NCBI GenBank assembly: GCA_965227835.1
Contig: OZ245768.1
Coordinates: 630,001 to 662,000, forward strand
Length of the DNA stretch: 32,000 nucleotides
Origin: Candidatus Saccharimonadota bacterium
Lineage (GTDB): Bacteria; Patescibacteriota; Gracilibacteria; BD1-5; UBA6164
Reading direction: 5' to 3'
Below are positions 2,079-29,697 of this stretch, piece by piece; the stretch's first letter is position 1; every line of letters begins with the position of its first letter. The position numbers were made by a program, and so were the translations under genes. The notes below the pieces were generated by a model. That model did no database searches. It worked only from the letters and a program-made list of their open reading frames with translations, and had not been told where the DNA came from.

Positions 2079-3167
2079 TTATGAACCCACACAAAAACAG
2101 AAAAGGTAATGGTCCTTTAGATAGGTACCACCAATTTTAGCAAGATTATCTAGGATAAGGACAGGGAAATTATTAAATTTTGTAGGAAGAATTATATTAC
2201 AACTTCTAAGTTTTTCAATAGGACTTAAACCGTTCATACCTATTCAAAAAGAAGGTCTATAATTATTATAAGTATAAATATATTTACTACTATGGTTTAA
2301 AAAATTAGGAAGAGATTTCATGCGATCAAGATAAGGTCTATATAATTCTTCATCATCAGTTCTATGAGATCTCTCTACAATTCATTGAAGATATTTTTTT
2401 CAAGCAGGAATACTCTTAAAACAGCAATTTATATTATTTAATATAGCATTCCACTGATTTTCCTTTCTCTTACTTCATCCACAAAAATCAGCAGGGCCAT
2501 TATCTCATTGAAATTCCATATGATAATATATTCACATACTCCTAAGATATGTAGCTATAGTAAGTATAAACATAAGACCAAATTCAGAAGAAAGACTATG
2601 AGAATAAGCTATAAATTTATATTTTGTTTTAGCACATATATATGTCCATTGATATAAAGGAAGATTATATTTTCTTAGTATAAAACAAAGTTCTCATAAA
2701 GCTTCAAAATCTTCTATATGCTTTGTATCTACTTGACCATACTCAAAGGGAAGAATATTTTGATAATCGTATAGAGGTTTACTATCTCATTTTCTACGAG
2801 AATAATGATGCTTTTTTACTTTGTTTCTTTTTAGTATATTTCATATAGTAGAGGAAGAGAATGTTATTCCATATCTGAGGAATAAATACTTTGCTAGACG
2901 TACTCTTCAATATTTTGTTTTATTTCGTTCTTGTAATACAAGTCATTCTAAATCAGAAGATGTTTTTTTATTATGAGGAGTCTTAGGAGCTCTTGATATA
3001 TTTTCTATAGGACCATCTCTACTTCTTCTTACTGTTTTACGAGAACATCATAATATATAAGCTGTTTTACTTACGTTTCCTTTGTTTTCTTCAAGTATCG
3101 ACCTCGCGAGGATTCTTGCTGATTCTACTCCTTGCTTAGTACACATTTTTTCATATAATCATTTCAT
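2079..3167 (-). CDS. DDE (rve-type) transposase, IS481-like, 362 aa
   Basis: Table-25 translation: MKGLYEKMCTKQGVESARILARSILEENKGNVSKTAYILGCSRKTVRR (HTH)...YGQVDTKHI...MEFQGDNGPADF...VERSHRTDDEE. This is the D..D..E integrase-fold pattern. There are many in-frame TGA. The ORF reads out through the left inverted repeat and the direct repeat to TAA at 2079-2081. Confidence 0.8.
2090..2104. repeat. Left copy of the 15-bp direct repeat cacaaaaacagaaaa flanking the IS481-like element
   Basis: An identical 15-mer occurs at 3283-3297, immediately outside both inverted-repeat ends. Confidence 0.7.
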
Positions 3168-3282
3168 AAGAGGTTTGGGATTATAAAATAAAATTTTTTA
3201 CAAAATCTATTATATCCTCATCCTCTTTTTTACACAATTCCATATCAATAAATAGTGGTACCTATCTACTGGTACAGATAAT
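2105..3282 (-). mobile_element. IS481-like insertion sequence (about 1.18 kb)
   Basis: The terminal inverted repeats share a 14-bp perfect core: tagataggtaccac at 2118-2131 and its complement at 3256-3269. The outer parts are imperfect. The element holds a single DDE transposase ORF and is flanked by a 15-bp direct repeat. Confidence 0.75.
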
Positions 3283-3394: not shown

Positions 3395-3691
3395 ATGAAA
3401 CATAAAAGAGAAGCTGGAAACAGAAATAAACGAAGTGAAAGAACAATGCTTAGTATGATAAATTCATACTTTGGGTTATGTAAATCTGAAAAAAGAGCTT
3501 TACACAATTCACTAACAATAAAAACAAAAAAACTCGGTATTAGTATTCGTGCCTACCTAGAAAAAAATTATGAAAATATATGCAGATTACCTAAATCTCA
3601 TAAAAAATCGATTATAAGGGGAGATATGTTACCCGGCTGAAAAGGCTATAAAATTAACCGGTATCTTAAAAAGATACCGGTTTTTGTTTAG
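3395..3691 (+). CDS. Small basic hypothetical protein. It is 81 aa if TGA at 3638-3640 is a stop, and 98 aa if TGA is read as Gly.
   Basis: An AAGGAG Shine-Dalgarno site lies 9 nt upstream of the ATG. The 81 codons contain no internal TGA (5 Gly, none TGA). The first TGA sits 15 nt before a perfect intrinsic terminator. Under table 25 the frame continues through the hairpin to TAG at 3689-3691. Confidence 0.55.
3656..3686 (+). terminator. Rho-independent terminator
   Basis: aaccggtatc-ttaaaaa-gataccggtt, followed by ttttt. Confidence 0.8.
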
Positions 3692-6234: not shown

Positions 6235-7321
6235 GGGCTAATACCAAAAATGTGTGCTAAAAAGGTATAGATTTTTTGCATTAAATAAGGAAGAAATAAG
6301 ATATATTTATGTAGTTTAAAAAATAAAATTTTATTATGCAAAAAAAACTGTCCCAAATGTCGTTGTATTTATATAAAAAAGAACTGAAAGAATAGTCAGT
6401 GAAAACAAAAATATAAATGTAAAAAATGTAATTTTTGTTTCGTTATCTCAACAAGAAAAACCCCAAGAATATATTGAGAAAAAATATTTCAAGATTGGAT
6501 TGAAGAATGATATTCATGTAGACAATTTTGAAAACAGAAATTAAAAAACAAAAAAGATATACTTAAAAATATTCAAAGTCATCTTGATTCAAACAAAATA
6601 TTTCAAATAGATCTTGTTTTTAAAAATATAAGTTATGTAATGATAGATGGAATATGGATTTCAAAAAATATATGTCTTATAATTTACTATGAATATATAC
6701 AAAAAAAAGTTATTCGTTTTGGTTTTTATAATTGAGAAAGATATGAGGATATACTAGAAGACTTAAGAATTCTTAAATATGAATTTAAATATAATATTTT
6801 GAGTTTTACTGTAGATTGAAGCAAACAAATAAAAAAAGCAATAGGAGAAATATATCCTAATGCAAAATTTCAGAGATGTTTAACACATATTCACAGACAA
6901 ATAACAAATTATATATCTAAAAAACCTCAAAGTGATTGTTGAAAAGATTTACAGAAAATAATGAATTTTAAAAACTTTGAAAATGAGAAAATTTTTACTG
7001 AATATTTCCAGAGTTGGGAGAGAAAATACTTTGATTTTTTAAAAGAGAAAAGTTCAAATTGAATAAGAACTTGGTATACTCATCGAAGACTCAGACAGGC
7101 GAAAAAACACATAAAAAATGCTCTTCCATATATGTTTCATTATATTAAAGATAAAAATATCAAAAGAAGTTCTAATGATTTAGAATGATATAATGGAGTT
7201 TTATCTAATCATATTTATTCTCACAGATGATTAAAAAAACATAGGATTATTTCTTTCATATCTCTTTGGATTTATAATAGAAATCTTAAGCAAAAATAGC
7301 ACACATTTTTGGTATTAGCCC
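6235..7321 (+). mobile_element. Insertion sequence (1087 bp) with perfect 25-bp terminal inverted repeats, IS1/IS1595-like
   Basis: gggctaataccaaaaatgtgtgcta at 6235-6259 matches the reverse complement of 7297-7321 exactly. One zinc-finger DDE transposase ORF lies inside. I could not see a target-site duplication. Confidence 0.85.
6319..7299 (+). CDS. Zinc-finger DDE transposase (IS1/IS1595-like). The open frame has no in-frame canonical start near its 5' end.
   Basis: Table-25 translation: ...CPKCRCIYIKKNGKNSQGKQKYKCKKCNFCF...VMIDGIW...FTVDGSKQ...SSNDLEGYNGVLSNHIYSHRGL. The only nearby ATG (6336-6338) is one frame off, across an A8 run at 6340-6347. The TAG stop at 7297-7299 is the first triplet of the right inverted repeat. 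Confidence 0.75.
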
Positions 7322-8840: not shown

Positions 8841-8923
8841 AAATTTTCACAAACGATTATAAATATAATTATATATTTGTCAAATTAACTTTATATATTC
8901 CCTTTTTATAGGTAATCAAGTAC
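8841..8923. repeat. Copy A of a duplicated promoter/upstream module of about 85 bp
   Basis: About 88% identical by eye to 10073-10154. It includes the -10, the -35 and about 40 bp upstream (ttatatattccctttttatag[g/c]taatcaagtac). Confidence 0.7.
8856..8883 (-). promoter_or_regulatory. Promoter TTGACA-16-TATAAT (minus strand) for the PPDK_N gene
   Basis: The -35 is the reverse complement of 8878-8883 and the -10 is the reverse complement of 8856-8861. Confidence 0.6.
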
Positions 8924-10072: not shown

Positions 10073-10154
10073 AAATTTTGCAAACGATTATAAGTATAAT
10101 AGTATATTTGTCAAATAAATTTTATATATTCCCTTTTTATAGCTAATCAAGTAC
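10073..10154. repeat. Copy B of the duplicated promoter/upstream module
   Basis: See 8841-8923. Confidence 0.7.
10087..10114 (-). promoter_or_regulatory. Promoter TTGACA-16-TATAAT (minus strand)
   Basis: The -35 is the reverse complement of 10109-10114 and the -10 is the reverse complement of 10087-10092. It is part of the duplicated module. Confidence 0.6.
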
Positions 10155-10261: not shown

Positions 10262-11221
10262 ATGAAACAATATCTAGAACAATTAGAACAAATAAAAGAC
10301 AATTGAGAGCTAAGAGATGATAGAACAGGCACAGGAGTTAGATCAATTTTTTGAATGCAAGCAAAATATAATTTAAAAGAAGGATTTCCTCTAGTTACTA
10401 CAAAAAAGACATTTCTAAGAATAATAATTATTGAACTTTTATGGATTATAAGATGAGATACAAATATAAAATATCTAGTAGACAGAAATTGTCATATATG
10501 GGATGAATGGCCATTCCAAAACTGGTTAGAGAATAGTGGTGAGAAAAAACCTAGGGATTACCCTACTTATTCTGAGAAACGGAATTACTTAAAAAAAGAA
10601 TTCATAGATAAAATAAAATATTCTTCTCCAGAAGATCCATTTGTAAAAAAATGGTGAGAATTATGACCAGTATATTGACATCAATGGAGAAATTTTAATT
10701 GAGATAAAAATGTTTTAGAAGACACTAAAGATAGAGTAGATCAACTATTAAATGCTGTAAATGAAATAAAAAATAATCCTCAAAGCAGAAGAATAATAAT
10801 ATCTTCTTGGAACCCCAAACAAATAGAAGATATGCTACTACCCCCTTGTCATGCATTTTTCCAATTCAATGTAAATACAAAAAATAAAACACTTGATCTA
10901 CAACTTTATCAGAGAAGTGCAGATATGTTTTTAGGTGTTCCTTTCAACATAGCATCATATTCAGCTCTATTAATTCTAATATCAAAAATAACTGAACTGA
11001 CACCATGAACATTTACACATACTTTGGGGGATGCACATATATATAATAATCATATAAAACAAGTAGAAGAACAACTGAAAAATGAACCTTTTCCATTACC
11101 TGAACTTAAAATAAATAAAAAAATAAAAAGTCTTGAAGATATAGAAAATCTAGAATGGGAAGATTTTGAATTATTAAACTATAAATCTCATTGAGTTATA
11201 AAAGCACCAGTAGCAGTATAA
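10262..11221 (+). CDS. thyA: Thymidylate synthase ThyA, 319 aa
   Basis: [31 protein letters not shown]...[10 protein letters not shown]...[12 protein letters not shown]...[26 protein letters not shown]...DAHIYNNH. I counted 9 in-frame TGA by hand. Confidence 0.95.
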
Positions 11222-11240: not shown

Positions 11241-11774
11241 ATGAAAAAATTTAGCATAATATTTGCATGTGATAGTAAGAACTGAATATGAAAAAATGGA
11301 GACTTACCATGGTCAATTAAAGAAGATTTGAAATATTTTAAAAGTATCACAAGTAATTCTATAGAAGGCAAAAAAAATGCTTTGATAATGTGAATAAAAA
11401 CTTGGGAATCTATCCCTGAAATATATAAACCTTTATCAGAAAGAATAAATTGTATACTATCAAGAAGTCATAGTTTTGAAGATAAAAACTGAGAAGTTAG
11501 AAGATTTAGTAGTTTTGAATCTGCAATGCAAAATCTAAGTTTGGATGATGATATAAATAAAATATTTGTTGTAGGATGAGCTTATTTATATAACAAGGTA
11601 TTTCTTGATAAAAATCTAGAATATATATACAAGACGAATGTAGCAGGAGATTTTGGTTGTGATGTATTTGTAAATAATATACCAAAAGAATTTATTTTAG
11701 AAAAAAAATCTGAGATAAAAAACGAAAATGAGTTGGAATTCAATTTTGAAATATATAAAAAAACTCTTTCTTAA
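11241..11774 (+). CDS. folA: Dihydrofolate reductase, 177 aa
   Basis: MKKFSIIFACDSKNGIGKNGDLPWSIKEDLKYFKSIT...ALIMGIKTWESIP...VVGGAYLY. It lies immediately downstream of thyA. Confidence 0.9.
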
Positions 11775-11785
11775 AAAGAAAGAGT
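11763..11785 (-). terminator. Hairpin actctttctt/aagaaagagt. A U-run follows only on the minus strand.
   Basis: On the minus strand the stem is followed by ttttttt. On the plus strand it is followed by aaatcaag. It overlaps the folA stop codon. An identical copy lies at 12259-12281. Confidence 0.65.
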
Positions 11786-11863
11786 AAATCAAGTTTAAGT
11801 ATTCTTGTGTCTATATGTGATTTACAATGGCTACACTTTGGAAATCATATATAGATAAAACAA

Positions 11864-11953
11864 TTAACTTAGTGAAAATTGCCAGAACCTTTCTAAGGAA
11901 TAAACTTGAAAATCCCCCCTTTTTATTTGATAGTTCTCATTGACACCTATCAT
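11864..11953 (-). CDS. Candidate 29-aa small ORF (MIGVNENYQIKRGDFQVYSLERFWQFSLS), copy 1
   Basis: An AGGAG lies 6 nt upstream of the ATG. The ORF sits inside a promoter-to-terminator unit and is identical in both duplicate copies. It contains no TGA. It could equally be part of a noncoding RNA. Confidence 0.3.
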   Translation of the reverse strand: MIGVNENYQIKRGDFQVYSLERFWQFSLS

Positions 11954-12055
11954 CCTAGACTCCTAATGAATGGACTAAATCCAAGGTTGCTGGAAGTCTA
12001 GGCAGAAAAACTCAGAAGAGATAACTAAGCCGGAGTACCACAACAACCAATTTAA

Positions 12056-12083
12056 AATATAAAAATACATTGATTTTTGTCAA
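12056..12083 (-). promoter_or_regulatory. Promoter TTGACA-16-TATATT (minus strand) driving the repeat-encoded unit, copy 1
   Basis: The -35 is the reverse complement of 12078-12083 and the -10 is the reverse complement of 12056-12061. Confidence 0.55.
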
Positions 12084-12102
12084 ATAAATTTGGTTCAAAT
12101 TT

Positions 12103-12176
12103 ATTATCTGTACTAGTAGATAGGTACTATTATTTATTGATATGAAATTGTATAAAAAATAAGATAAGGATATAAC
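12103..12176 (+). mobile_element. Solo-end remnant of the IS481-like element
   Basis: attatctgtactagtagataggtactattatttattgatatgaaattgtataaaaaataagataaggatataa aligns with the reverse complement of 3209-3282, which is the right end of the intact copy. There are a few substitutions and one small indel. Confidence 0.7.
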
Positions 12177-12358
12177 ACATATTGTACATATGTACACGGA
12201 GAATGACTTAGAAAAAATCCAAGATGAGTTAAAATTCAATCTTGAAATATACAAAAAAACTCTTTCTTAAAAAGAAAGAGTAAGTCAAGTTTAAGGATTC
12301 TTATGTCTATATATGACTTACAATGGCTACGCTTTGGAAATCATAATAGATAAAACAA

Positions 12359-12448
12359 TTAACTTAGTGAAAATTGCCAGAACCTTTCTAAGGAATAAAC
12401 TTGAAAATCCCCCCTTTTTATTTGATAGTTCTCATTGACACCTATCAT
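12359..12448 (-). CDS. Candidate 29-aa small ORF, copy 2 (identical peptide)
   Basis: Same as 11864-11953. The terminator copy is at 12259-12281. Confidence 0.3.
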   Translation of the reverse strand: MIGVNENYQIKRGDFQVYSLERFWQFSLS

Positions 12449-12549
12449 CCTAGACTCCTTGACGGATTGGCTCAAAACCAGGGTTGTTGGGAATCTAGGA
12501 AGAAAAAACTCAGAAGAGATAACTAAGCAACAATCAACAACCTAACTAG

Positions 12550-12577
12550 AATATAGTAAAATATTAATTTTTGTCAA
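12550..12577 (-). promoter_or_regulatory. Promoter TTGACA-16-TATATT (minus strand), copy 2
   Basis: The -35 is the reverse complement of 12572-12577 and the -10 is the reverse complement of 12550-12555. Confidence 0.55.
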
Positions 12578-12585
12578 AAAAATTT

Positions 12586-13251
12586 ATGAATAAATTTGAA
12601 GAAACATTTTTTAAAAAATATATACCACAAGACAGTGAAATAATTCAAGTATTTCATAAACATTTTATAAAAGTAGCTGATAGCTTGGTATTTATAATAT
12701 GAATTTGAGTGATTATACCTGTTTTTTTGTATTATAATTCTTATTTATTTCAAAAATATATAAATTTCTTATACTTAGAAATATATTTAATTTTTGTTTA
12801 TATATTAACTATTTATAAACTATTTGATTGGTACAATGATGTTCTAATATTGAGTAAAGATTCTATAACAAAACTAAAATGGTCTCTTTTTAAAAATAGT
12901 GTGGAAAATGTAGATTTAAAATATATAGAATGAATTGAGATAAACAAAAAAAATATTTGGGATAAGGTTTTTAGAAAATGAGATATAATGATTTTGAAAT
13001 TTTGAGATGAAGAGCTAGTATTTGAAGAAGCAAGTAATCCATATAAAGTTTTAAATGAGATAGAGAAATCTGTTAATTATATCAAGTCAAGTCTAGATAA
13101 AACAAAGTTTGACTTGATGATGGATACTTTAGGTTGAATAGTAGAAGATTATTTATGAAAAGAAAAAGAAGATAAAGATTTGAAAGAAAAGGAGAAAGAA
13201 AATATTTTGAAAAATGTAGAGGAAAAAGATTCTACGATAGACCTTAGATAA
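12586..13251 (+). CDS. Hypothetical membrane protein, 221 aa (two TM helices followed by a soluble domain and an acidic/lysine-rich tail)
   Basis: Table-25 ORF: MNKFEETFFKKYIPQDSEIIQVFHKHFIKVADSLVFIIGIGVIIPVFLYY... Track ORF 12709..12933 is an internal fragment. The topology resembles bPH/YdbT-like membrane proteins, but that assignment is weak. Confidence 0.65.
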
Positions 13252-17548: not shown

Positions 17549-17773
17549 CTATTCGCTAGGTGGTTTCAACATTGATTGCGAATATGAATAAACATAATAA
17601 CCAGGGGCAGGGCCAGAAAAAGGATCCACATATTCTTTATATTTATGTTTAACTTGATGTCCTCCCAAAAGAGAATAACCTTGACTTAATTTTTCATTGA
17701 CTGAATCTGAAAGTTCTTTTAAGCTTTTTCCAGTTACTATTACATATCTATCTTCTACCACTTTACCACACAT
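17549..17773 (-). CDS. Small DUF1737-like protein, 74 aa (cassette 1)
   Basis: MCGKVVEDRYVIVTGKSLKELSDSVNEKLSQGYSLLGGHQV... The pattern Y.vv...s..eL...Vn..l.qGy...GG is what I recall for DUF1737. An AAGGAG Shine-Dalgarno site is present. There are 7 Gly, none TGA. The stop is TAG. Confidence 0.7.
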   Translation of the reverse strand: MCGKVVEDRYVIVTGKSLKELSDSVNEKLSQGYSLLGGHQVKHKYKEYVDPFSGPAPGYYVYSYSQSMLKPPSE

Positions 17774-17855
17774 AATAAAATTACTCCTTGTTTTTTAAAA
17801 AAATTAACTTTTGTTTTGAAACTAAATAGTATAAAAACTATTTTGTTCAATAGTT

Positions 17856-17883
17856 ACTATAATTTATTTTTTAATTTTGTCAA
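17856..17883 (-). promoter_or_regulatory. Promoter TTGACA-16-TATAGT (minus strand) of cassette 1
   Basis: The -35 is the reverse complement of 17878-17883 and the -10 is the reverse complement of 17856-17861. Confidence 0.6.
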
Positions 17884-17961
17884 AAAATATTTTGACTTTT
17901 TTATATTTTAAAACTTAAAAGTTTGATTAAAATCGGCTAATATTTAAATAGTTTAAAAAAG

Positions 17962-17994
17962 AAAAACCGTCGGAATTTATTTCCGACGGTTTTT
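17962..17994. terminator. Palindromic intrinsic terminator (accgtcggaa/ttccgacggt) downstream of cassette 2
   Basis: A 10-bp GC-rich stem flanked by an A-run and a T-run. It could work in both orientations. Confidence 0.8.
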
Positions 17995-18029
17995 GTGTAG
18001 AATATTTTTTGGAAAATTTATAAAGTAGG

Positions 18030-18245
18030 TTATTTACTAGGTGGTTTCCACAATGTTTGTGATAATTGAGTTCCATAAAAATCACCTTCAGAACCGAGTT
18101 TACAAACACCATATCCTGAAATATTTTGTACTCCACCTGACGGAACATAGCCTTCTTGTATTTTCCGATCTACTTCCTCAATAAGCTCATTAAGTTTAGA
18201 TGAAGTTATCACTATGAAACTTTTTTCTACTACTTTACCACACAT
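18030..18245 (-). CDS. Small DUF1737-like protein, 71 aa (cassette 2, divergent paralog)
   Basis: MCGKVVEKSFIVITSSKLNELIEEVDRKIQEGYVPSGGVQN...LWKPPSK. It shares only the first 7 residues (MCGKVVE) and the last residues (KPPS) plus the core motif with cassette 1. There are 9 Gly, none TGA. Confidence 0.7.
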   Translation of the reverse strand: MCGKVVEKSFIVITSSKLNELIEEVDRKIQEGYVPSGGVQNISGYGVCKLGSEGDFYGTQLSQTLWKPPSK

Positions 18246-18328
18246 AATAAAATTACTCCTTGTTTTTTTAAAAAATTAACTTTTGTTTTGAAACTAAATA
18301 GTATAAATACTACTTTTGTTCAATAGTT

Positions 18329-18356
18329 ACTATAATTTATTTTTTAATTTTGTCAA
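18329..18356 (-). promoter_or_regulatory. Promoter TTGACA-16-TATAGT (minus strand) of cassette 2
   Basis: The -35 is the reverse complement of 18351-18356 and the -10 is the reverse complement of 18329-18334. Confidence 0.6.
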
Positions 18357-18433
18357 AAAATATTTTGACTTTTTTATATTTTAAAACTTAAAAGTTTGAT
18401 TAAAATCGGCTAATATTTAAATAGTTTAAAAAA

Positions 18434-18467
18434 GAAAAACCGTCGGAATTTATTTCCGACGGTTTTT
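18434..18467. terminator. Second copy of the palindromic terminator. It overlaps the 3' end of cassette 3.
   Basis: The same accgtcggaa/ttccgacggt hairpin. The TAA stop of the 102-aa ORF (18450-18452) lies in its loop. Confidence 0.8.
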
Positions 18468-18758
18468 GTGTAGAATATTTTTTGGAAAATTTATATTGTT
18501 AAGAATGTTCCAGAATTCTGTCAACTCCTCATCTGATAGAGGCATATGATTAGTAGACACTTCCTGAGGACTAGAGTCTACAGAGTTTTCTATATTTATA
18601 CCAATAGGACCTTCTTCCTGCATATAAATATAAGAATTGGTTTTAACAATTAATGCAAGGTGTTCCAGTTTAGAAACACATTGTAGAACTCCTCCAAATC
18701 TCATCATATAGGATAATTCTCGATTACCTGAAATTTTCCAAATTTTAATTTTATCCAA
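18450..18758 (-). CDS. Hypothetical protein, 102 aa (cassette 3), TTG start
   Basis: AGGAGG lies 6 nt upstream of TTG at 18758. There are 5 Gly, none TGA. The last 14 codons are contributed by the repeated module. I recognised no family. Confidence 0.6.
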   Translation of the reverse strand: MDKIKIWKISGNRELSYMMRFGGVLQCVSKLEHLALIVKTNSYIYMQEEGPIGINIENSVDSSPQEVSTNHMPLSDEELTEFWNILNNINFPKNILHKNRRK

Positions 18759-28477: not shown

Positions 28478-28489
28478 GTTTTCTTTGAA

Positions 28490-28603
28490 AAATTATGATA
28501 AGTTTTTGTAAAATTACGATAAGTTTTTTTGAAAAATAGTTTTACTTAAAACTAATATTTATTAAAATTACGATAAGTTTTTATAAAATTACGATAAGTT
28601 TTA
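28490..28603 (+). repeat. Four direct repeats of 17-18 bp, AAATTA[C/T]GATAAGTTTT(T)
   Basis: The copies lie at 28490-28507, 28511-28528, 28565-28582 and 28586-28602. They form two pairs with 21-bp spacing, 54 bp apart. The last copy abuts the ATG of the wHTH gene. Confidence 0.85.
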
Positions 28604-29697
28604 TGAAAAAATCAGAACTTACAAAATCTAGGATATATCAATATATAAATTCAAATCCATGACAATCTAGTATTCAAATATCAAAATTTTTATGAATTAC
28701 TAGAGTTGCTGTTTTACATTACTTACAAGAATTATTAAAAAATAATAAAATCTATAAAACAGGTAATACTAGAGCTACTAGATATTTTGTTTTGGTTGAG
28801 AAATATCCAATGAAAATATCAAGAGATTTTTTCACTAGTTTAAAAAAAGACTTGATGAATGAATATGATTGATTAGAAGATATATATATACCAAATTTAC
28901 TTGATAGTTTATTAGCAATATTAAAAGCTGATTGAACTTGGGAATATGGTTTTCAAGCTTTTATAGAAAAAATTATCAAAGAAAATTCTTGAAAAATACC
29001 TAGTGAAAAATTATTGTATAAAAGGGTATTTTCCTTTTTAATAAGTTTTTTTGAAGAAGAAAGAAAAAGAAGAAAAAACTGATTTTTTGATGGAACAGAG
29101 AGTCTAAGAATTATAATGAATTCTTATGATACAAAATCGTATATAGATAAATTACTTTTCACCCAAATATCAACTCTTCCTCATTTTTGAAGACTTAGAG
29201 GTACTACAGAGCTTTTTTATTGAAAATTGGATCAGAATAAATACTTGATTGAAAAATCAATTACTAGATCTATAAGCTTAATAATTGATTTTATAAGGAA
29301 AAGTAAAATAAAACACGTAATATTCACTCCCCCCACACTTAAAAGAAAAACACAATTTAGAGATATTTTGAAAGAGATTTTAAATAAAAATGACATTTAT
29401 CTAAAAGAAATAAGCTGTGAAAAAATAAAATCAGATTTTATTCATACACTTAGACCCCAAAAAGAATTGAAGTGATATGACAGAATTATAAATGCTACAA
29501 AAACTATAGTTTTGAAAAATACTTGAATCAATACAGATAGTATAGTTATCTTTGATGATAATTTTACTACTTGAGCAACTTTGAACTCTATTGCCGAAAA
29601 ACTAAGAAACTCTAATTATATATGAAATATAACAGCAATTACAATAACTTGAAATTTTGAATACATTCCATGAGTTACAGATGTTTGAGAAATTTAA
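28603..29697 (+). CDS. Winged-HTH plus phosphoribosyltransferase-domain protein (PurR-like architecture, ComF-like PRT motif), 364 aa
   Basis: The N-terminus, SRIYQYINSNPGQSSIQISKFLGITRVAVLHYLQELLKNNKIYKTG, is a wHTH. The C-terminus, SIVIFDDNFTTGATLNSIAEKL, is the PRPP-binding loop (vvDDv.TTGaTl). Track ORF 29227..29475 is an in-frame fragment. Confidence 0.75.

Follow-up and report, generated by a model that had tools for sequence, protein, structure and literature searches.

Sibling small RNAs (sRNAs) such as OmrA/OmrB of enterobacteria and PrrF1/PrrF2 of Pseudomonas are paralogues encoded side by side; each gene has a promoter and an intrinsic terminator to itself, and the siblings share one identical block while the rest of the sequence has diverged. 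Dual-function sRNAs, among them SR1 (encoding SR1P) of Bacillus, RNAIII (delta-haemolysin) of Staphylococcus and SgrS (SgrT), are structured RNAs of a few hundred nucleotides (nt) that carry an open reading frame (ORF) of 26-43 codons and are constrained at the RNA level beyond what coding requires. In the hok, aapA1 and fst mRNAs of type I toxin loci the Shine-Dalgarno sequence is locked intramolecularly and a different nascent fold is predicted; these loci occur in tandem or multiple copies near mobile DNA and are narrowly distributed. RNA thermometers and other hairpin-gated start sites hold AGGAG and AUG in the 3′ arm of a hairpin. Features of all four groups come together in a unit of about 400 bp that is present twice next to folA in a 32,000-nt stretch of a Gracilibacteria genome (contig OZ245768.1, positions 630,001 to 662,000; hereafter the window, with positions counted from its first letter). 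From sequence comparison we conclude that this unit is a real, orphan, duplicated minus-strand gene for a structured RNA, present as sibling copies and under selection at the RNA level. Our favored reading, which we hold tentatively, treats the product of the two sibling genes as a regulatory RNA of mRNA-like character, which could be a dual-function sRNA or a small ORF gated by a hairpin.

Both copies of the unit, anticipated by the original prediction, were recovered by a repeat finder and by pairwise alignment. They are identical over 114 nt (11851-11964 and 12346-12459) and again over 12006-12030 and 12504-12528, with flanking stretches of 90% identity (11717-11849 and 12213-12345) and 80% identity (12041-12091 and 12535-12585). 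A FolA search led us to a second version of the locus on a 24.7-kb ENA contig (L003), which is ~97% identical to the window overall and therefore belongs to the same species. The layout of L003 is alike, comprising copy 1, the end of an insertion sequence (IS), a folA relic and copy 2. Copy 1 is nearly identical between the two strains and copy 2 is strongly different, so the four copies amount to three distinct alleles, all from one species.

Alignment of the four copies delineates an invariant core of 87 nt on the minus strand (11878-11964 in copy 1, 12373-12459 in copy 2) that begins at AGGAG, takes in the ATG and codons 1-25, and stops one base beyond codon 25. None of the 87 core columns is variable, compared with 64 of 257 outside it (Fisher p = 1.2e-9). 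Between strains, copy 2 shows 42 differences in the 181 nt around the core (~23%) and 0 in 88 at the core position, and further out its sequence is again nearly identical. All third codon positions within the core are frozen, so selection on a peptide alone is insufficient to explain it; because copy 2 has diverged between the strains on both sides of the core, gene conversion alone is insufficient as well. That selection on the core acts on its nucleotide sequence, and not on a peptide alone, is well supported by these allele comparisons. Further invariant islands are both promoter hexamers, a 20-nt CU-rich block, the motif UAAACUUGA and the terminator; the least conserved parts of the RNA are its leader and the interior of its first hairpin (H1), both upstream of AGGAG.

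These patterns bear directly on one rival explanation, to which we assign a small likelihood: the unit would simply encode a small protein, on a transcript with long untranslated regions (UTRs), and conversion between the tandem copies, not an RNA-level function, would have kept the core invariant. In its favor, the ribosome-binding site is canonical, the G+C content and codon index of the unit match those of other small accessory genes preceded by AGGAG, and a tandem pair elsewhere in the window (17660-18495) likewise has a 100% identical block beside a 74% identical one. For conversion to be the cause, however, its tracts would have to end at identical points in the two strains, or later divergence would have to have left just the core untouched, and the differences between the two versions of copy 2 lie on both sides of the core and not within it. 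The invariant block moreover includes non-coding bases, additional invariant islands fall outside the ORF, and the C-terminus of the peptide is not kept.

As in the sibling sRNAs, the two copies in each strain are adjacent paralogues that each have a promoter and a terminator of their own. In copy 1, a minus-strand promoter (12056-12083) with 11 of 12 matches to consensus consists of TTGACA (12078-12083), a 16-nt spacer and TATATT (12056-12061). The transcript predicted from it, taken from ~7 nt after the -10 hexamer through the U-run of the terminator, covers 11757-12049 on the minus strand (~293 nt, 33% G+C), the same interval as the self-match of a covariance model. It ends at an intrinsic terminator (11757-11785) with a 10-bp stem, a 3-nt loop and U7 that is invariant in the four copies. 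In copy 2, the predicted minus-strand transcript spans 12253-12543, from the same TTGACA-16-TATATT promoter (12550-12577), which stands back to back with the start of the gene at 12586-13251, to a terminator at 12253-12281. The two terminators have a U-run on the minus strand only and are the sole terminator-like sites in the 2.1 kb scanned, where shuffled sequences give 0.4. A minus-strand promoter and terminator are present in both L003 copies too, and in the four-copy alignment none of the 12 hexamer columns varies, as against 6 of 16 in the spacer and 4 of 7 just downstream. The folA stop codon lies inside the terminator hairpin of copy 1; folA and copy 1 therefore converge with an overlap of ~18 nt, and the original description of a minus-strand, promoter-to-terminator unit convergent with folA is borne out by the scan.

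Compared with OmrA/OmrB and PrrF1/PrrF2, the RNA is two to three times longer. The identical block, instead of being a short seed, occupies 87 nt in the middle of the RNA and contains a start site and an ORF; there is no sequence relation to either family. Composition also sets the unit apart. The copies have 33% G+C and the core 36%, versus 21.7% in intergenic and 24.5% in coding DNA, and the two highest 200-nt G+C peaks of the whole window coincide with the two units (36.5% against a mean of 24.2%).

Base-pairing patterns point to the same strand. Seven of the eight variable predicted pairs are retained on the minus strand only, by way of G-U pairing, and one favors the plus strand; because the underlying structure was itself predicted on the minus strand, this count is biased. 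A long-range helix includes three invariant G-U pairs that would be A-C on the plus strand. The base of H1 differs between copies at two positions (C-G/U-G and U-G/C-G); a single substitution had been claimed for this outer stem, and although the number needs correction, both changes do keep pairing on the minus strand only. On the plus strand of the unit, promoter-like sequences reach only 9 of 12 matches, within the numbers obtained from shuffles, and the scan of the 2.1 kb found no terminator-like site. These results make it highly improbable that the region has no gene of its own and represents the 3′ UTR of folA, the 5′ portion of the plus-strand operon that follows or decaying sequence left behind by IS activity. 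The plus strand does have the more unusual folding energy, one variable pair favors it, and read-through from folA is possible since the folA hairpin has no U-run following it. Such an origin, however, does not sit well with minus-strand hexamers and a terminator conserved in four copies amid variable surroundings, with the variable and G-U pairs just described, or with two copies that are intact while the folA relic and the IS end are truncated. A plus-strand ORF of 43-46 codons was considered as a gene and rejected; it is frameshifted in L003 copy 2, and no homologue was found.

One predicted structure of the RNA is H1 (minus strand, 11954-12002 in copy 1 and 12449-12499 in copy 2), in which a large internal loop separates a 10-bp base, with the 3′ arm AGGAGUCUAGG, from an apical stem of 5 bp. 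H1 holds AGGAG six nt before the ATG, as expected from the long hairpin described originally, and its interior is hypervariable across alleles, above all on the 3′ side, with a conserved 5′ side. The predicted stability is -17.3 to -21.1 kcal/mol at 37 °C, and the base has no mismatch. Across the three alleles, predicted pairing probabilities in H1 are 0.78-0.80 for AGGAG and 0.61-0.87 for AUG, a model result that supports sequestration of the Shine-Dalgarno sequence in a stem. Each allele keeps the apical stem with a sequence of its own (UGGAU/GUCCA, UGGUU/AGCCA and CUGGU/ACCAG).

A second pairing may compete with H1. The 5′-terminal segment GGUUGUUG (minus strand, 12041-12048) may act as an anti-sequestor or as one side of a pseudoknot, since it can pair with CA(G/A)CAACC at 11985-11992, within the H1 5′ arm and internal loop. 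In none of the four copies does another leader duplex rank higher, all cells of the alignment are paired, and in each of the three alleles this pairing forms the minimum-energy fold of the first 85 nt, that is, of the nascent RNA. In the full-length RNA, the leader:arm state differs from the H1 state by +4.2, +5.4 and -0.2 kcal/mol in the three alleles. Measured against shuffled leaders the pairing gives p = 0.088, 0.016 and 0.001, better than shuffles in two of three alleles that are not independent of one another. The combination of a conserved 5′ side and a hypervariable 3′ side within H1 fits leader:arm pairing. With a competing 5′ leader segment, the translational control proposed for the sequestered site gains a concrete form.

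Beyond H1, the core holds a hairpin just after the AUG (H2, 11929-11951), a run of six G and UCAAGUUUA (11901-11909). Upstream lies the CU-rich invariant block GCUUAGUUAUCUCUUCUGAG (minus strand, 12011-12030), identical in the four copies; between its CU-rich part, AUCUCUUCU (12014-12022), and AGGGGGGAU (11912-11920), RNAalifold proposes a 9-bp long-range helix, which shows no covariation. A second 9-bp long-range helix in the same model joins UCAAGUUUA to UAAACUUGA (11789-11797). In the 3′ domain, hairpin H5 (minus strand, 11810-11855) varies among alleles by changes that mostly preserve pairing. The complete RNAalifold model consists of H1, the post-AUG hairpin, the two long-range helices, three 3′ hairpins and the terminator; 99.7% of alignment cells pair in it, and the data are consistent with this predicted fold. 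L003 copy 2 lacks 8 nt within a predicted hairpin loop, a deletion that also cuts the ORF short at codon 25.

The core overlaps a predicted 29-codon ORF with its stop (minus strand, 11864-11953 and 12359-12448), MIGVNENYQIKRGDFQVYSLERFWQFSLS, whose ATG stands 6 nt downstream of AGGAG and which is identical in the two copies of the window, in line with the original claim. Segments of the predicted product include MIGVNENYQIKR and GDFQVYSLER. Its charged residues occupy positions 6, 11, 12, 14, 21 and 22, and no apolar run of at least 15 residues is present; the peptide had indeed been described as not hydrophobic. The AGGAG-N6-AUG arrangement is canonical, and three other intergenic sites in the window with AGGAG, a spacer and an ATG opening an ORF of at least 20 codons, at 3395 (+), 17773 (-) and 18245 (-), likely mark real small genes.

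Several observations count against an mRNA-like regulatory RNA. Minus-strand folding energies are unremarkable (z = -1.4 and -2.8), and the plus strand is more unusual (z = -3.8). A change of both partners is seen in just one pair, and the covariation score, attained by 81 of 500 shuffles, is not significant because only three distinct alleles from a single species are available. In an A+U- and G+U-rich RNA, a 9-bp helix is, by our estimate, expected by chance about once per sequence. The ORF has a codon index of 0.478, equal to the off-frame mean and at the 0.15th percentile of real in-frame windows. None of the 21 larger genes of the window has a Shine-Dalgarno sequence, one allele (L003 copy 2) loses the last four codons, and searches of Pfam and NCBIfam found no homologue or family for the peptide. 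The codon argument against translation is weakened because the other AGGAG-led small genes of the window score similarly, at 0.48-0.61; they are also richer in G+C.

Much of this would suit a pure structured non-coding RNA (ncRNA), either a trans-acting base-pairing sRNA or a protein-binding RNA, encoded as a sibling pair, in which AGGAG is only the purine strand of a helix, the ORF is incidental and the core is an interaction surface. This explanation seems to us somewhat doubtful. It accounts well for the lack of any synonymous difference in 25 codons where neighboring sites differ by 10-35%, for a G+C peak of the sort typical of structured RNA genes in A+T-rich genomes, and for a deletion that trims the ORF and preserves a hairpin; the match between the ORF codon index and non-coding frames, the scarcity of Shine-Dalgarno sequences in the window and the absence of a peptide homologue in pattern and phmmer searches agree with it too. 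It leaves aside, however, that AGGAG is ideally spaced before the AUG of a 29-codon ORF, a coincidence that we estimate at less than about 1% in random RNA of this size, and that the host ribosome evidently serves small genes led by AAGGAG. Competition between leader and H1 would make evident sense only where accessibility of the start site is important. The 52 kb searched (32 kb plus 20 kb) contained no complementary target site, and covariation gives a base-pairing or protein-binding RNA no support either. Weighing both sides, we regard a function at the RNA level as well supported, and gating of the ORF by hairpin H1 as probable, given the predicted folds. The mRNA-like reading retains the likeness to SR1, RNAIII and SgrS set out above; one difference is that SR1P and SgrT are conserved across genera, whereas for the peptide of this predicted ORF no homologue was found.

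The self-occluded start site invites comparison with type I toxin-antitoxin loci, and a type I toxin-like layout had been suggested for the unit. Under such a scheme, a stable toxin mRNA that occludes its own start site would be activated by refolding or processing and opposed by a plus-strand antisense RNA. A strong promoter, an RNA of ~290 nt, a ribosome-binding site predicted to be sequestered intramolecularly in three alleles, an alternative fold in the nascent RNA, tandem copies, an adjoining IS remnant and a very narrow distribution are all usual for type I loci such as hok/sok, aapA/isoA and fst. Unlike the toxins of hok, aapA1 and fst, however, the unit peptide is not hydrophobic: six charged residues are spread along it and leave no stretch long enough for a membrane helix. 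The promoter and terminator scan also detected no antitoxin RNA gene, with no terminator on the plus strand and promoter matches there (9 of 12) no better than shuffles. We give a toxin-antitoxin arrangement little credence.

Two further suggestions, a thermosensor and a riboswitch-like element, are likewise not supported as labels, nor is that of a type I toxin. Hairpin H1 resembles RNA thermometers in the placement of AGGAG and AUG, but its perfect 10-bp base is predicted to be more stable than the weak, mismatch-studded helix typical of these elements, and what it would gate is no heat-shock or virulence gene but a 29-codon ORF inside an RNA that ends at a terminator. The region upstream of AGGAG is the least conserved part of the RNA, which argues against a riboswitch, and Rfam models gave no riboswitch match at E values up to 10.

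The unit appears to be an orphan, as the original failure to match it to any known RNA family had implied. Rfam 15 returned no match in the window at gathering thresholds, and with E values up to 10 the window and L003 gave only chance matches far below threshold, for example to SNORD91 (19.7 bits versus 51) and CC0196 (17.8 versus 35). ARAGORN detected no tRNA or tmRNA, and inspection by eye for motifs of SRP domain IV, RNase P, tmRNA, the 6S rod and hammerhead revealed none. A degenerate pattern for ENYQIKRGDF had no match in 185,579 species genomes or in JGI metagenomes, a transition-tolerant pattern across the G-run junction had none in metagenomes and viral contigs, and phmmer with the peptide against 1.84 billion representatives yielded only two repeat-protein artefacts. 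A blastn search of phages and plasmids gave a single 37-nt A+T-rich chance match. The variable hairpin segments, considered as possible guides, matched nothing elsewhere in the window or L003.

Synteny tells a similar story. Locus retrieval from genomes with FolA recovered unrelated bacteria only, and a covariance model (R1) applied to 13 loci (~170 kb) of Gracilibacteria relatives found the four known copies alone. The original note asked whether single-copy relatives carry the unit directly after folA; in all those fetched, at 46-66% FolA identity, a convergent gene directly follows folA instead. Nor does the unit precede the PH-domain gene in relatives, where an xth or dehydrogenase gene directly precedes it. 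The unit is thus confined, as far as these sequences indicate, to one species; the nearest FolA outside that species is 66% identical, so sampling around it is thin. A more far-reaching reading takes the unit as a new class of large structured RNA, sampled here for the first time, in Gracilibacteria using genetic code 25; its frozen core would be catalytic or bind a protein or the ribosome, and the three alleles would represent a diverse pool in which peripheral segments are exchanged around that core. We regard this as quite unlikely. In one version of it, the strong start site and the rare AGG-GGG codons could act on the translation machinery.

How the two copies arose can be read from their junction. 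Located exactly at the joint of the two direct repeats is a solo, internally truncated end of an IS481-like element (plus strand, 12103-12186), which is present in L003 as well and matches 3199-3282 in inverted orientation at 87%. Its start coincides exactly with the IS terminus ATTATCTGTAC, and its other side is cut inside the IS. The original annotation gave this end 74 nt; it is in fact 84 nt long. Its source family is represented by a full IS481-like element at 2101-3282 (minus strand), with a gene at 2079-3167 (-) for a 362-aa transposase that has weak rve_3 and HTH matches. The full element is flanked on both sides by CACAAAAACAGAAAA, and the site is empty in L003 (L003 3690-3715), so this insertion is recent; the full element and the solo end are 13% diverged. 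The start of copy 2 retains a relic of the final ~26 folA codons (plus strand, 12190-12270), which translates as ...NDLEKIQDELKFNLEIYKKTLS and a stop where folA itself reads ...EKKSEIKNENELEFNFEIYKKTLS and a stop. Both the relic and an IS-associated tandem duplication had been proposed, the first now confirmed by translation and alignment and the second supported by the IS terminus between the repeats. On this sequence evidence, we consider that the copy pair is the product of an old IS-junction tandem duplication that has since been retained.

Strain differences extend into folA. Over the last 140 nt of the gene L003 has 19 differences (9 amino acid changes; compared stretch 11636-11756), and over the first 390 nt it has 2, none after 11300 and without an amino acid change. 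Such mosaic differences between the strains point to short-patch recombination with diverged alleles.

The window as a whole has 24% G+C and reads through TGA (code 25); with table 11 only four ORFs of at least 110 aa appear in the 32 kb, because TGA is a sense codon. Relatives of its proteins carry the name Candidatus Gracilibacteria. Around the duplicated unit the gene order is thyA (10262-11221, +), folA for dihydrofolate reductase (11241-11774, +; translated with code 25, with homologues containing PF00186), the two copies, and a gene for a PH-domain-like membrane protein (12586-13251, +) that diverges from copy 2, has Gracilibacteria relatives named PH-domain proteins and is followed by uvrC.

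Elsewhere in the window, the few small genes preceded by AAGGAG are richer in G+C and low in codon index, which suggests a distinct class of accessory or foreign genes. The second tandem pair (17660-18022 and 18132-18495) consists of two small minus-strand genes encoding 74 aa (from 17773) and 71 aa (from 18245), with a weak DUF1737 match and an AAGGAG Shine-Dalgarno sequence before each; the two share 182 nt of promoter and terminator DNA at 100% identity, their coding parts are only 74% identical, and L003 has a single copy. An 82-nt repeat (8842-8923 and 10073-10154, 89% identical) precedes two different genes and contains a perfect minus-strand TTGACA-17-TATAAT promoter. The source genome seems to have copied promoter regions from place to place. 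At 28484-28609, AAAATTAYGATAAGTT occurs four times in two 21-nt arrays that abut and enter the ATG of the ORF at 28603-29697 and look like a putative operator array. A 219-aa ORF at 6640-7299 resembles, at first glance, a transposase gene fragment; neither it nor an adjacent 504-aa gene has a counterpart at that place in L003.

If an mRNA-like regulatory RNA is indeed the product, each copy would act as a minus-strand gene of its own, in which a consensus promoter of the sigma-70 type starts an RNA of ~290 nt with an intrinsic terminator at its end; in copy 1 the folA stop falls within the terminator hairpin. Selection would act on the RNA sequence itself, keeping the 87-nt center frozen as the periphery drifts or recombines with most predicted helices kept. 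The leader would form a two-state gate: with H1 formed, AGGAG-N6-AUG would be locked and the start site shut, and with GGUUGUUG paired to the H1 arm the start site would be open. On this reading the unit would be transcribed, the switch would work and the ORF may be translated; what the sequences show directly is the duplication, the signals and their strand, the invariance, the start-site occlusion in predicted folds and the complementarity that competes with it.

Gracilibacteria and other bacteria of the candidate phyla radiation are uncultivated and have tiny genomes, and to our knowledge almost nothing has been reported on their regulatory RNAs or small proteins; a literature search returned nothing on ncRNAs of Gracilibacteria. 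The weight of this finding is limited because the unit comes from one species and has no assignable function. Against that background, the unit stands out as a clean, self-contained candidate, with its own promoter and terminator, the highest local G+C content and an unchanging core amid variation, and it offers a worked example of a retained IS-junction duplication. If expressed, it would provide a first handle on RNA-based control in the Gracilibacteria lineage and a natural case of an RNA start-site gate with a competitor in its own 5′ leader.

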